Source: Burkholderiales bacterium
GTDB taxonomy: Bacteria; Pseudomonadota; Gammaproteobacteria; Burkholderiales; SG8-39
NCBI GenBank assembly: GCA_035489775.1
Contig: DATHJM010000370.1
Span: 1-46,780 of the forward strand
Length of the DNA stretch: 46,780 nucleotides
Direction: 5' to 3'
Shown here: positions 6,043 to 18,804 of the stretch, in pieces
How positions within the stretch are numbered: the first letter of the stretch is position 1
Layout: each line of letters starts with the position of its first letter
Made by a program: the position numbers and the translations under genes
Notes under the pieces: generated by a model
What the model saw: the letters and a program-made list of their open reading frames with translations, nothing else
Database searches by the model: none
What the model was told of the DNA's origin: nothing

Positions 6043-7272
6043 ATGGCGAGAGAAAACAAGAACCTCATCGTCGCTCTGGACATCGGCACATCCAAAGTCG
6101 TGGCGATGGTGGCGGAACTTTTCCCCGACGGACGCATGGACATCATCGGGACGGGCGGTCACGAGTCCAAGGGTCTGAAAAAGGGCGTCGTCGTGAACAT
6201 CGAGGCGACTGTAAACGCCATCCAACGCACGCTCGAGGAAGCGGAATTGATGGCCGACTGCAAGATCGAGCGGGTTTTCACCGGCATTGCCGGAAGCCAC
6301 ATCAAGAGCTTCAACTCCACGGGGATGGTAGCGATCAAGGACAAGGAGGTGACGCCGATCGACGTCGAGCGCGCGATCGAGACGGCGCGCGCGATGCCTA
6401 TTCCGACCGACCAGCAGGTGCTGCACATCCTCACCCAGGAATTCATCATCGACGGGCAGGACGGGGTGCGCGAGCCGCTCGGCATGAGCGGCGTGCGGCT
6501 CGAGGTCAAAGTGCACATCGTCACCGGTGCCGTCTCTGCCGCGCAGAACATCGTCAAGTGCGTGCGCCGCTGCGGGCTGGAAGTGAACGATCTCATCCTG
6601 CAGCCGCTCGCGTCTTCGCTTGCCGTGCTGACCGAAGACGAAAAGGAACTCGGCGTGTGCCTCGTCGACATCGGCGGCGGTACGAGCGACATAGCCGTGT
6701 TCCGCGAAGGCGCGATCCGCCACACGGCCGTCGTCCCGATCGCCGGAGACCAGATCACCAACGACATCGCGATGGCGCTGCGCACGCCCACCGCAGAGGC
6801 CGAAGAACTCAAGGTCCGCCACGGCTGCGCGCTCAGGCAGCTTGCCGAGGCTGGCCAGATGATCGAGGTCGCCGGCGTGGGCGATCGCCCGCCGCGAATG
6901 CTTTCGCGCCAAACGCTCGCCGAGGTCATCGAGCCCCGCGTCGAGGAACTTTACTCTCTCATTCAGCAGGTGCTGCGCGACTCCGGCTACGAGGAGCTCT
7001 TGTCGTCGGGAGTTGTGCTCACCGGGGGCTCCGCCGTGATGCAGGGGATGGTGGAACTGGGCGAGGAGATCTTTCACATGCCGGTGCGGCTCGGCATTCC
7101 CCGCTATACCGGCTCCCTTTCCGACGTGGTCCGCAGCCCGCGTTACGCCACCGGCGTCGGCCTGTTGCTCGAGGGCGTGGTGCAGACCCAGCGCGGACTG
7201 ATCGCGCGGCAGGGGGGATCTCTGAAGCAGATCGTAAAGAGGATGCGCCAATGGTTTCAACGGAATTTTTAG
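6043..7272 (+). CDS. ftsA: Cell division protein FtsA (actin-like ATPase)
   Basis: 409 aa with LIVALDIGTSKVVAMV, VDIGGGTSDIAVF and GVVLTGGSA motifs. Lies immediately upstream of ftsZ. Confidence 0.96.
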   Translation: MARENKNLIVALDIGTSKVVAMVAELFPDGRMDIIGTGGHESKGLKKGVVVNIEATVNAIQRTLEEAELMADCKIERVFTGIAGSHIKSFNSTGMVAIKDKEVTPIDVERAIETARAMPIPTDQQVLHILTQEFIIDGQDGVREPLGMSGVRLEVKVHIVTGAVSAAQNIVKCVRRCGLEVNDLILQPLASSLAVLTEDEKELGVCLVDIGGGTSDIAVFREGAIRHTAVVPIAGDQITNDIAMALRTPTAEAEELKVRHGCALRQLAEAGQMIEVAGVGDRPPRMLSRQTLAEVIEPRVEELYSLIQQVLRDSGYEELLSSGVVLTGGSAVMQGMVELGEEIFHMPVRLGIPRYTGSLSDVVRSPRYATGVGLLLEGVVQTQRGLIARQGGSLKQIVKRMRQWFQRNF

Positions 7273-7323: not shown

Positions 7324-8475
7324 ATGTTTGAAGTCGTCGAAAACACAGCGAGCGGCACCGTGATCAAGGTGATCGGTGTCGGCGGCGCGGGCGGCAATGC
7401 CGTCGATCACATGATCCGAAACGGCGTGGCCGGCGTCGAATTCATCACCGCCAATACCGACGGACAGGCGCTGTCGCGCACCCAGGCGAAGAGCCAGATC
7501 CAACTCGGGTCGACGGGCCTTGGCGCAGGGGCCAAGCCCGAAGCCGGGCGCGCCGCGGCGCTCGAAGCTCGCGAACAGATCGCCGACGCCCTGCGGGGTT
7601 CGCACATGGCCTTCATCACCGCCGGAATGGGCGGCGGCACCGGCACGGGCGCCGCGCCGGTAGTTGCGGAGGTCGCCAAGGAGATGGGCATCCTCACCGT
7701 CGCGGTCGTCACCAAGCCCTTCTCGTTCGAAGGCGTGCGCCGGATGCAGGCCGCCGAAACCGGCATCGCCGAGCTCTCCCAGCACGTCGACTCCGTCATC
7801 GTGATTCTCAACGAGAAACTCGAGGACGTGCTCGGCGACGAGGTGTCGATGGAGGAAGCATTTTCCGAAGCCGACAGCGTGCTGAAAAACGCCGTGGCGG
7901 GCATTTCCGAAATCATCAACGTCCCCGGTCTTATCAACGTCGATTTCCAGGACGTTCGCACCGTGATGGCCGAGCAGGGAATGGCGATGATGGGTTCCGC
8001 GGCCGCTTTGGGCGTGGATCGCGCGCGCATCGCAGCCGAACAGGCGGTCGCTTGTCCCCTGCTCGAAGGCGTCAATCTGTCCGGCGCGCGGGGGGTCGTA
8101 GTGAACATCACGGCCAACAAGTCGAGCCTGAAGCTGCGCGAGACCAAGGAGGTGATGAACACCATCCGCGGCTTCGCCGCGGACGATGCGACCATCATTT
8201 TCGGCGCCGTCTACGACGATCCCATTGGCGAGGAGCTACGCGTCACCGTGATTGCGACGGGTCTCGGCCAGCCGCAGATCGCGCGTCAGGCCAAGCCGAA
8301 GCTGGTGCAAAAGACGGGCACCGACAACCTGCCCGCCGCGGGGGTGGATTACCGGGTGCTCGACGAGATGCCTGCGGTGATCCGCAAGAACCGCGCTTCA
8401 ACCATCGAGGCGCTGCAAAACAGCGGGGTCGACAAGTACGACATTCCCGCATTCCTGCGCAAGCAAGCCGACTAG
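7324..8475 (+). CDS. ftsZ: Cell division GTPase FtsZ
   Basis: 383 aa with GVGGAGGNAV, the tubulin signature GMGGGTGTGAAPV, and the conserved C-terminal tail DIPAFLRKQAD. Confidence 0.98.
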   Translation: MFEVVENTASGTVIKVIGVGGAGGNAVDHMIRNGVAGVEFITANTDGQALSRTQAKSQIQLGSTGLGAGAKPEAGRAAALEAREQIADALRGSHMAFITAGMGGGTGTGAAPVVAEVAKEMGILTVAVVTKPFSFEGVRRMQAAETGIAELSQHVDSVIVILNEKLEDVLGDEVSMEEAFSEADSVLKNAVAGISEIINVPGLINVDFQDVRTVMAEQGMAMMGSAAALGVDRARIAAEQAVACPLLEGVNLSGARGVVVNITANKSSLKLRETKEVMNTIRGFAADDATIIFGAVYDDPIGEELRVTVIATGLGQPQIARQAKPKLVQKTGTDNLPAAGVDYRVLDEMPAVIRKNRASTIEALQNSGVDKYDIPAFLRKQAD

Positions 8476-8486
8476 GGAGCAATCAA

Positions 8487-8636
8487 ATGAGCACAGCCAA
8501 GAGAACGGGCATGCCTCGCTATCTGCGCAAGCCCTTGATCGTAAGAACGAGCGAGCGACTGCCCATTCGGCCAGCGCCGGTGCTGATCCGTACCGTCGCT
8601 TTCGTCCCGGCATACCTGCGCAAGCGGCCGCATTGA
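8487..8636 (+). CDS. Candidate small basic protein (49 aa) with FtsZ-tail-like [F/Y]LRK motifs; hypothetical
   Basis: ATG at 8487 is preceded by AGGGAG (8474-8479, 7-nt spacer) that overlaps the ftsZ stop. Translation: MSTAKRTGMPRYLRKPLIVRTSERLPIRPAPVLIRTVAFVPAYLRKRPH. There is no homology evidence. It is the tail of the long out-of-frame track ORF 8052..8636. Confidence 0.3.
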   Translation: MSTAKRTGMPRYLRKPLIVRTSERLPIRPAPVLIRTVAFVPAYLRKRPH

Positions 8637-8653: not shown

Positions 8654-8678
8654 CTCACCGGAATTCCGGGTCGGTGAG
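8654..8678. other. Inverted repeat / palindrome in the ftsZ-lpxC spacer
   Basis: CTCACCG (8654-8660) pairs with CGGTGAG (8672-8678). It encloses the perfect 12-nt palindrome CCGGAATTCCGG (8658-8669). No U-tract follows, so it is not a classical terminator. Confidence 0.4.
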
Positions 8679-8741
8679 ACTGCCCGCTATGCTAAAATTC
8701 CATACTTTCAATCGGCTACGGCAATTGCTGCAGCGACGCAA

Positions 8742-9659
8742 ATGTTCAAGCAGCGCACCCTCAAATCCGTGATTCGCGCCACAGGCGTCGGCCTGCATAC
8801 CGGCGAGAAAGTGGCCGTGACCTTGCGACCGGCCTCGCCGGACGTGGGCATCGTGTTTCGGCGCATCGATTTGCCCGTGCCGATCGACATAGTAGCCGAC
8901 GCCTTCAAGGTCACCGACACGCGGCTTTGCAGCGCGCTGGAGGCAAACGGGGCAAAAGTGACCACGGTCGAGCATCTCATGTCGGCATTCGCGGGGCTCG
9001 GCATCGACAACGCCTACGTCGATCTCACGGGGTCGGAAGTTCCGATCATGGACGGGAGCGCCGCCCCTTTCGTGTTTCTCATTCAGTCGGCGGGCATCGA
9101 GCAGCAGCCCGCGCCAAAGCGTTTTTTCAGAATCAAGAGCGCGGTAGAAGTGACAGATGGCGACAAGTGGGCGCGCTTCGAGCCGTTCGAAGGCTTCAAG
9201 CTTTCGTTTTCGATCGAGTTCGACCACCCCGCCTTCGAGCGCTCGGCGCAGGCGGCTCACGTCGACTTTGCCGATACCTCCTACGTCAAGGAAGTCGCCC
9301 GGGCGCGCACCTTCGGTTTCATCCAGGACGTCGAGGCCATGCGCGATTCGGGCCTAGCTCTGGGCGGGAGCCTCGAAAACGCCGTCGTGGTGGACGAGTA
9401 CCGCGTGCTGAACGTCGAGGGACTGCGCTACAGCGACGAGTTCGTCAAACACAAGTTGCTCGACGCTATCGGCGATCTATACCTGATCGGACACCCGCTG
9501 ATCGGCTATTTTTCGGCCCACAAATCCGGCCATGCCCTGAACAACCGTTTGCTGCGGGCGACGCTTGCCTCCGAGCATGCCTGGGAATACGTGACCTTCG
9601 AACGCGAGGAGGACGCTCCGGCTGCCCTGTCCCGGTTGTTTGCCCTGCCTGCCGGCTGA
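8742..9659 (+). CDS. lpxC: UDP-3-O-acyl-N-acetylglucosamine deacetylase
   Basis: 305 aa with [41 protein letters not shown] and [12 protein letters not shown] motifs. Canonical position after ftsZ. Confidence 0.97.
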
Positions 9660-9675
9660 GCGGTATCGCGGGCCC

Positions 9676-9861
9676 ATGCTCGCCCTGCGCATCGCAGCGA
9701 TTCTCGCGGTGCTCGCCACCGCGGCTGGGATAGTCCTGTATCTGCTGACCCGTGACAGGAAGTATCTGCGCTTGGCGTTCCAGGTATTCAAGTACGCCCT
9801 GATTTTCGCCCTGCTGGTCTTCGGCCTTCTGATGCTCGAACGTGCGATTGTGCTCGTCTAG
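9676..9861 (+). CDS. Small hypothetical membrane protein (two predicted TM helices)
   Basis: Translation from the internal ATG 9676 reads MLALRIAAILAVLATAAGIVLYLL...ALIFALLVFGLLML. The track start at 9640 would overlap lpxC. No recognisable family. Confidence 0.45.
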   Translation: MLALRIAAILAVLATAAGIVLYLLTRDRKYLRLAFQVFKYALIFALLVFGLLMLERAIVLV

Positions 9862-18030: not shown

Positions 18031-18804
18031 TTACAGATTGCAGAAAGTCAGCTCGAACTCGACGTCCGCCTCGCACACGCGCGTGCCGAAAGTGCTGAAG
18101 CGGACGTTCAGCGCGTAACGGTTTGCGCTGATCTCGGGGATGAACTGCGATTCGCGCGGCAGCCGGATGCGCACCATCTGCGACATTTTGCCGCCGAGCA
18201 TTTGCGAGAAAGCAGCGCGGTGGGCGACGTGCTTCACGGGCTTGCCGCCTTCGCGCAGCAGTTTCAGCACGATGGAGGAAGCGTCACGGATCGGAAGCAA
18301 CGGGGAAATCCAGGTGCCGAGGTCGGCCCCGCGCCTGGCTCCTTCGCGGTGCAACCAGAAATGGTAGGAGGGCAGATCGAATTCGCAAACTCCGCCGGGG
18401 ATCCCGGTGCGCTGCTTGATCGACATCAGCCATTCGTTCTCGCGAAGGTACTGGCCGATCTTGCCGGTCATGGCGAAAAGCGCGGCGCTTGAGCGTTCGA
18501 TGTCGGAAATGACCTGCTGGAGCACGCTCTCCGCGATTTGAGGGTTGTTGCGAAACCCGAGCAGTACCTGCTTCTGTCGCTCGAGTTCTTGCAGCAGGTC
18601 CGACTTGAGCTCTGCGCGACCGGCGACTTCCAGGATCTCAAACAGCGTTATCAGCGCGGCGTGGTGTGCGCGCGAATCTTCCTGTGCTACAAAGTGATTG
18701 GCGCGCTCGAACAGGTCCTCCAGACGCAGCAGGGTCCGGATTCGTTCGTTGAGCGGATACTCGTAGGTGATCACGATGACATCCGCGACTGGAAGGGTAG
18801 GCAA
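18031..18804 (-). CDS. zapD: Cell division protein ZapD (FtsZ C-terminal tail binder)
   Basis: 257 aa with the N-terminal [23 protein letters not shown] signature. The coaE-zapD-yacG order is conserved. Confidence 0.92.

Follow-up and report, generated by a model that had tools for sequence, protein, structure and literature searches.

The conserved C-terminal peptide of FtsZ is a hub that links membrane anchors, bundlers, positional inhibitors and a protease to the Z ring. The partners of this tail in E. coli-type divisomes are FtsA, ZipA, ZapD, MinC, SlmA and ClpX, and in E. coli it reads IPAFLRKQAD, as it does in the organisms described here. Small regulators of FtsZ or of the divisome include MciZ of Bacillus, Kil of phage lambda, Icd of phage P1, SulA, and SidA/DidA of Caulobacter; to our knowledge none of them acts by copying the FtsZ tail. 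Here we describe a small protein encoded between ftsZ and lpxC in an uncultured Burkholderiales bacterium (GenBank assembly GCA_035489775.1, contig DATHJM010000370.1, positions 1 to 46,780; the whole 46,780-nt stretch is called the window). It carries a tail-like motif twice, once at its extreme C-terminus, and it bears on an open question, the sharing of access to the FtsZ-tail hub. Free peptides with the tail motif are also available as laboratory fragments of FtsZ (Savinov et al., 2022, PMC9245647; FragFold, 2025, PMC11831152), and 30-aa fragments covering residues 354-383 inhibit the growth of E. coli (PMC9245647, PMC11831152).

In both the small protein and the FtsZ peptide, the arrangement hydrophobic-P-x-aromatic-L-R-K ends three residues short of the C-terminus, a disordered linker that varies and tolerates indels stands in front of the motif, and a helical turn is predicted on it; both are encoded in the same operon. 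Unlike FtsZ, the small protein has no GTPase domain, shows the motif twice and sets it in a basic context (RPH; net charge +11). It also has Tyr in place of Phe, Q in place of Leu in 25% of the family members, and an extra element PVLIRTVAF. The FtsZ fragments resemble it as free tail-motif peptides and are expected to compete for FtsA, ZipA, MinC or FtsZ itself, as the small protein might. They are laboratory constructs cut from FtsZ, whereas the small protein is the product of a natural, separately translated gene and is unrelated to FtsZ outside an 8-residue core. MciZ, Kil, Icd, SulA and SidA/DidA are divisome modulators of about 40 to 75 residues, and a modulating role is hypothesized for the small protein as well, but it has no detectable homology to curated small divisome inhibitors in Pfam, NCBIfam, PHROGs or PDB. 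The known regulators are induced by stress, phage or development, whereas this one sits constitutively behind ftsZ.

An earlier reading of the letters alone (the sequence-only reading) had reported a 10-mer occurring three times near the ftsZ end, each copy read as [F/Y]-L-R-K. We confirmed the three copies of CTGCGCAAGC at 8455-8464, 8523-8532 and 8616-8625, all inside 170 bp and in the same reading, and found no other copy on either strand of the window. Shuffled windows contained 0.39 copies on average; three copies appeared in 1 of 100 shuffles and were not clustered. The longer repeat CC(C/G)GCAT(T/A)CCTGCGCAAGC is identical at 17 of 19 nt between 8446-8464 and 8607-8625, which bears out the near-identity of the ftsZ end and the end of the open reading frame (ORF) at the DNA level. 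Translation of the window in six frames gave four matches to P-x-[FYW]-L-R-[KR], three of them in 8446-8625 (shuffle mean 0.68). The 3' end of ftsZ, DKYDIPAFLRKQAD-TAG, encodes DIPAFLRKQAD-stop, and 11 nt lie between this stop and the ATG of the small ORF at 8487. The ORF translation given earlier, with AGGGAG at 8474-8479 over the ftsZ TAG, was reproduced exactly. FtsA (6043-7272) and ZapD (18031-18804, minus strand), named as tail partners present in the window, are indeed both encoded there.

With the window FtsZ as query, one genome per species was scanned, which yielded 80 loci. The ORF is present with both motifs at the four nearest loci (FtsZ 91-97% identical), which come from uncultured Burkholderiales-type metagenome-assembled genomes (MAGs), and in none of the scanned loci with FtsZ of 81% identity or less. 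Relative to the ftsZ stop, the four nearest loci show it in three different frames, and one copy has an in-frame insertion of four codons; these properties favor a coding function and exclude an extension of FtsZ by read-through or frameshift. In a metagenome scan we confirmed 148 copies and retrieved 80 of them; 83 ORFs were extracted in all. The frame is open in every recovered copy and starts with ATG in 82 of 83. The ftsZ stop lies 9-24 nt upstream in 78 of 83; the remaining five show no ftsZ end inside the 150 nt scanned upstream, a contig end being the probable cause. The frame relative to ftsZ is again distributed over all three possibilities (53, 17 and 8 cases), and read-through or frameshift was rejected here too. 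TGA serves as the stop codon in 68 copies, TAA in 10 and TAG in 5. A Shine-Dalgarno (SD) sequence of the GGAG/GAGG type was found in 78 of 78 ftsZ-ORF spacers, independent of spacer length and sequence.

Among 66 distinct DNA sequences, variability is 0.21-0.24 at third codon positions versus 0.01-0.06 at positions 1 and 2. The ratio of nonsynonymous to synonymous variation (pN/pS) amounts to 0.15 over codons 1-16 and to 0.07 over the final 20 codons; other frames give 1.4-6.9, the shifted ones 1.6-6.9. One antisense frame is an exception with a similarly low ratio because its wobble positions are shared with the ORF frame, and it contains stops in 63 of the 66 sequences. A chance ORF or an antisense gene was rejected on the pN/pS values and on these stops. 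The last 38 codons of ftsZ in the same genomes have a pN/pS of 0.10 at the same synonymous divergence (about 0.43), so the end of the small protein is constrained as strongly as the FtsZ tail. Independent pipelines had also annotated the ORF as a gene in relatives. It was concluded that 8487-8636 is a real protein-coding gene under purifying selection. The small basic protein that the sequence-only reading had placed after ftsZ is therefore upheld: frame, start, SD and stop register are kept, and synteny is fixed. The check suggested with it, a coding signature and synteny in relatives, likewise turned out in its favor, with motif, frame and stop spacing conserved.

A profile search over 5.8 billion proteins found homologs of the small protein in at least 120 clusters at 90% identity (41-72 aa), from soil metagenomes and MAGs. 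All clusters are unnamed or called "hypothetical" and none has a Pfam domain. The ORF is located between ftsZ and lpxC at every locus where the flanks are present. The divergent members, in which FtsZ is 88.5-91.6% identical to that of the window, show the context ftsQ-ftsA-ftsZ-ORF-lpxC-(61 aa)-dciA-M23-secA, and the IPAFLRKQAD of FtsZ is unchanged in every relative with the small ORF. Searches of Pfam, NCBIfam and PDB with the small protein gave no match at E <= 10, and an exhaustive HMMER search over 1.84 billion representative proteins found the family itself, one further protein (P0122) and nothing else. P0122 (L165, 3001-3645) has 214 aa made of 58-residue tandem repeats starting STVKRLLRTVSLLPAYHRS, and it is encoded on a gene-poor 2-Mb contig next to an UNC-93-like neighbor. 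As a remote homolog (E 6.6e-6) it was judged a spurious match to an unrelated tandem-repeat ORF; the profile matches it because four weak repeats sum. In PHROGs, a 37-aa family whose function is unknown matched marginally and below threshold (E 9e-4 to 0.06), without support from tblastn, and no relatives of the family were found on viral contigs; a phage origin of the family was rejected on these two results. As sampled here, the family is narrow, unannotated and limited to one clade of uncultured soil Burkholderiales. A 27-kb metagenome contig, Ga0193699_10000195 (L081), encodes an identical small-ORF protein followed by an identical spacer, and it is probably derived from the window's organism or a very close relative.

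The family has the layout MSTAKRxxMPRYLRKP, linker, PVLIRTVAF, and [V/I/M/L]-P-A-Y-[L/Q]-R-[K/R]-R-x-H-stop. Length variation and low conservation are confined to the linker, which has about 12-18 residues. Across the family the net charge ranges from +11 to +13. Residues were counted by column in 110 members. The N-terminal motif shows P 100, R 110, Y 105 or F 5, L 105, R 110, K 92 or R 18, and P 102. In PVLIRTVAF the residues V, L, R, T, V and F are invariant (110/110), with synonymous variation at third positions. The C-terminal motif has invariant P, R, R and H, with L 81, Q 28 and H 1 at the Leu position, and in all 110 members three residues separate it from the stop, as they do in FtsZ. 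No member lacks an intact [FYW]LR[KR], and all members with Q have an intact N-terminal motif. AlphaFold2 (AF2), run on the 110-sequence alignment, gave no globular fold (predicted local distance difference test, pLDDT, 69; predicted template modeling score, pTM, 0.20). The model places helical turns exactly on both YL(R) motifs, the N-terminal one at residues 11-13, and a beta hairpin at 32-34/37-39 (VLI..VAF). By prediction, the 49-residue product is intrinsically disordered and highly basic.

By hhalign, the family and the final 50 residues of FtsZ aligned in 8 columns only, vPAYlRkR with IPAFLRKQ, at E 3.9e-4. The conserved pattern is hydrophobic-P-x-aromatic-L-R-basic, and the core of the docking peptide, P-x-[F/W/Y]-[L/I/M]-[R/K] behind a hydrophobic residue, occurs twice in the protein. 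Residues I374, F377 and L378 of E. coli FtsZ are reported to be critical for ZipA binding (PMC8669495), and the conserved positions of the small protein cover their equivalents. BLASTP also paired VPAYLRK of the ORF with a motif in the FtsZ linker (8368-8388); this match is weak (E 0.01), and profile comparison does not back it. The linker motif itself, (D/E)xPAV[I/F/W/V]R[K/R], lies about 25 residues 5' of the tail, is common in the Burkholderiales FtsZ proteins examined and is loosely tail-like.

Tail mimicry is the best-supported reading of these comparisons: the small protein would compete at, or modulate, the docking of the FtsZ tail. We put it forward tentatively, with a confidence just short of an even call. 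The small ORF would form the final cistron of the ftsZ mRNA, and its expression would keep pace with that of FtsZ. The two P-x-[Y/F]-L-R-[K/R] motifs of its product, the second at the C-terminus in the FtsZ register, may copy the docking-peptide core and could occupy the tail pockets of the FtsZ partners FtsA, ZapD, ZipA, MinC, SlmA and ClpX. Such a soluble decoy might damp the binding of monomeric or short FtsZ without abolishing ring anchoring, and with two motifs per protein it might bridge dimeric partners. The outcome would be a tuning of Z-ring anchoring, bundling or antagonism, and division would not be blocked. Damping rather than blocking would be expected because a single tail binds weakly and FtsZ polymers prevail through avidity, the mode by which they reportedly bind according to work of Du and colleagues from 2015. 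For a single FtsZ tail on ZipA, a dissociation constant (KD) of 20-35 uM has been given. The growth inhibition by free FtsZ fragments cited above makes occupation of the pockets plausible. Our full-text literature searches found no description of a natural FtsZ-tail mimic or decoy, in agreement with the earlier remark that no tail-mimic peptide had been described at this locus.

Several observations weigh against tail mimicry. The equivalent of Leu378 in the C-terminal motif is Q in 28 of 110 members (25%) and H in 1 of 110. That every member has one intact motif or more is not significant (Fisher P 0.19), and redundancy between the two motifs, which we had considered, is accordingly unsupported. 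The acidic D-I-P...Q-A-D of FtsZ is changed to A-F-V-P...R-P-H, with no acidic flank kept, and this basic context could block binding at pockets that use acidic residues. A decoy stoichiometric with FtsZ could harm the cell unless its affinity is low. The most conserved element of the protein, PVLIRTVAF, has no counterpart in FtsZ, and the main function may therefore be elsewhere.

The last point leads to a serious rival, although on balance we think it rather unlikely: the protein is real, its tail-like motifs are leftover or coincidence, and its target is something other than the tail pockets. A polycation of +11 to +13 with a PVLIRTVAF beta hairpin could bind the acidic FtsZ core or polymer, either as a bundler like the positively charged C-terminal variable regions or by filling the site on the core where the tail folds back; away from FtsZ, it could bind nucleic acid, the ribosome or an anionic membrane. 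The conserved high charge, the tolerance of L to Q in the terminal motif and the strong conservation of the PVLIRTVAF block would all fit such a function. FtsZ tail fragments are predicted to bind FtsZ itself (PMC11831152), and autoinhibition between tail and core is reported in PMC12747378. A target outside the pockets leaves unexplained, however, why purifying selection acts on two copies of P-x-[Y/F]-L-R-[K/R], why the C-terminal FtsZ register is exact in 110 of 110 members and why the position beside ftsZ is fixed, and Pfam, NCBIfam and PDB showed no similarity to nucleic-acid-binding or ribosomal families. An improbable alternative is a cis-acting leader or arrest peptide, in which stalling at the C-terminus would control the hairpin downstream and hence lpxC read-through or the stability of the ftsZ mRNA 3' end. 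The invariance of the C-terminal 19 residues including the last His, the position of the stop codon 18 nt 5' of the conserved hairpin and the distance of 105-124 nt to lpxC are consistent with this; yet the N-terminal 16 residues, which arrest would not need, are constrained too (pN/pS 0.15), and the stop codon varies (TGA 68, TAA 10, TAG 5). The hairpin, moreover, is weakly covarying and lacks a U-tract, and lpxC is separated from the ORF by a -10-like box, although transcripts reading through to lpxC may exist; box and hairpin are both older than the ORF.

We consider it highly improbable that the region is non-functional at the protein level, whether as a duplicated ftsZ 3' end in decay or as a DNA repeat such as a three-copy protein-binding site. 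Both had been offered by the sequence-only reading as options, and the three 10-mers inside 170 bp and an ORF position that suits tandem duplication speak for them. The "decaying" duplication is refuted by purifying selection, since frame, start, SD and stop have been kept over a synonymous divergence of about 0.43 at a pN/pS of 0.07-0.15, and the divergence of the metagenomic copies excludes assembly artefacts of one sequence. A DNA repeat acting on lpxC found no support: changes fall at third positions in and near the repeats, the peptide rather than the 10-mer is conserved, and lpxC has its own, older -10-like box. A DNA-level repeat or binding site was rejected on that basis. No similarity to ftsZ was detected beyond its last 10 codons; over the first 39 codons, ungapped comparison gives 27% DNA identity, versus 28.5% in control windows, and at the protein level there is none outside the motif (BLOSUM permutation P = 0.45). 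The ORF as a duplicate of the last 49 ftsZ codons was rejected for want of residual DNA or protein similarity. The ORF sits exactly where a tandem duplication of the ftsZ 3' end would have placed it, the sequence trace of such an event having been erased or never having existed; because there is no similarity outside the last 10 codons, this origin is not demonstrable. Sister clades lack the ORF, and it is therefore a clade-specific insertion. Judging from the sequence that follows ftsZ in these clades, the ORF is an insertion between ftsZ and the ancestral downstream hairpin. It presents a case of a new small gene arising in a gene cluster that is among the most conserved in bacteria.

FtsZ-like tails were also found on phage-like contigs. 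We scanned IMG/VR contigs for DNA encoding P-x-F-L-R-K-Q-A-D-stop and obtained five matches, versus about 0.5 expected by chance by our own estimate. One family of 67-68 aa (P0123-P0131) is encoded at L166 (7365-7568, minus strand; the same gene as L168 7400-7603) and L167 (6001-6207). Its N-terminal part is weakly CsrA-like (Pfam CsrA, E 0.085), and a variable linker leads to the conserved end D[I/L]P[A/L]FLRKQAD-stop; the motif is degenerate in two of nine members. Its genes are found in early operons, and the contigs show features of temperate phages: repressors of the CI/Cro type, a serine recombinase, a primase and an amidase, and also a diversity-generating retroelement. A 113-aa protein (L169, 782-1123, minus strand) encoded directly 3' of Mu-type transposase A and B genes ends in KLPHFLRKQAD-stop, and its only homolog (P0133), 53% identical, ends in NLPHFLRRQAD-stop. 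In phage Mu, kil lies at this position after transposases A and B. An 82-aa ORF on two viral contigs (L170, 10773-11018, plus strand; L171, 1102-1347, minus strand) ends in EDLPVFLRKQAD-stop and lies near ParB-like and ribonucleotide-reductase-like genes; a homolog search with it found none. The tail is conserved across homologs in two of the families, those of 67-68 aa and 113 aa. A search of cultured phages for counterparts of the tail-bearing proteins found none.

The phage-like-contig proteins resemble the window protein in being small non-FtsZ proteins that, behind a variable linker, repeat the FtsZ docking peptide at their extreme C-terminus. They have a near-exact tail ([L/I]PxFLRKQAD) and a folded-looking N-terminal part and are encoded in phage early regions; the window protein, by contrast, is chromosomal, with a diverged tail, two motifs and no folded domain. 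Their tails make mimicry by the window protein more likely a priori, without proving it, and they suggest that the principle may reach beyond one clade. Borrowing of the FtsZ tail may be a recurrent strategy that is undescribed in the literature searched. A wider proposal, possible but doubtful at present, is that bacteria and phages have repeatedly evolved FtsZ-tail mimics. The window protein would then be the first chromosomal, operon-encoded one, a bivalent decoy that sets how much of the tail-binding capacity on FtsA, ZipA, ZapD, MinC or SlmA is open to FtsZ, and the proteins of the phage-like contigs would be hijackers. If tail mimicry is true, a free conserved copy of the tail in the cistron after ftsZ would represent a new layer of divisome control and a ready-made probe. 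The hypothesis is testable directly in E. coli proteins and cells, since E. coli has the same IPAFLRKQAD.

Table 1. Positions of the features in the ftsZ-lpxC region of the window.
Feature	Position	Strand	Remarks
ftsZ, 383 aa	7324..8475	+	ORF list; 53-97% identical to FtsZ of 80 genomes
FtsZ linker motif M-P-A-V-I-R-K, residues 349-355, P-x-x-[IL]-R-K-like	8368..8388	+	upstream of tail
FtsZ conserved C-terminal peptide D-I-P-A-F-L-R-K-Q-A-D	8440..8472	+	holds 10-mer copy 1
Shine-Dalgarno sequence AGGGAG	8474..8479	+	overlaps ftsZ TAG; 7 nt 5' of ATG
Small-protein gene, 49 codons + TGA (8634-8636), net charge +11	8487..8636	+	
N-terminal tail-like motif M-P-R-Y-L-R-K-P	8511..8534	+	holds 10-mer copy 2
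Variable linker, residues 17-30, P/A/R/T-rich, tolerates indels	8535..8576	+	family alignment
Near-invariant block P-V-L-I-R-T-V-A-F, residues 31-39	8577..8603	+	family alignment
C-terminal tail-like motif V-P-A-Y-L-R-K-R-P-H + stop	8604..8636	+	holds 10-mer copy 3
GC-rich hairpin CTCACCGG / loop AATTCCGGGT / CGGTGAG	8654..8678	+	18 nt 3' of ORF stop, no T-run
TATGCTAAAAT, extended -10-like box, candidate lpxC promoter	8688..8698	+	near-invariant in 54 relatives
lpxC, 305 aa	8742..9659	+	ORF list; Pfam LpxC at syntenic loci

The hairpin downstream of the ORF (Table 1) has 6 consensus pairs and shows weak covariation among relatives. A scan 3' of the ORF for terminators and -35/-10 promoters found no canonical terminator and no -35/-10 promoter; the extended -10-like box is absent from this output because it has no -35. 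As a canonical terminator the hairpin was rejected, being weakly covarying and without a U-tract. In sister clades without the ORF, the ftsZ stop is followed by about 14 nt and a GC-rich hairpin with a CTCCGGGTCG loop, and several ORF-less relatives have a TRTG(T/G/C)TAAAAT box before lpxC, among them three of the four sister loci that are nearest, where it reads TRTGTTAAAAT. The same hairpin and box come after the ORF stop in the ORF-bearing clade, with lpxC at 105-124 nt. This putative control of lpxC is therefore older than the ORF, and 8654-8698 probably comprises a 3' structure of the ftsZ mRNA and the lpxC promoter.

In the 5' leader of lpxC, a palindrome GCTACGGCAATTGCTGCAGC (8715-8734) ends about 8 nt 5' of the ATG. 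Relatives have a CUGCRG...CUGCRG hairpin in the same leader, with a loop that varies in length and sequence, and lpxC has no obvious SD there. The palindrome may be a translational control element. A small ORF overlaps the end of lpxC (9640-9861, plus strand, probable ATG at 9676; 61-73 aa). At L161 and L163 the corresponding 61-aa gene has no Pfam match. The product is hydrophobic, with two membrane-spanning stretches predicted by eye.

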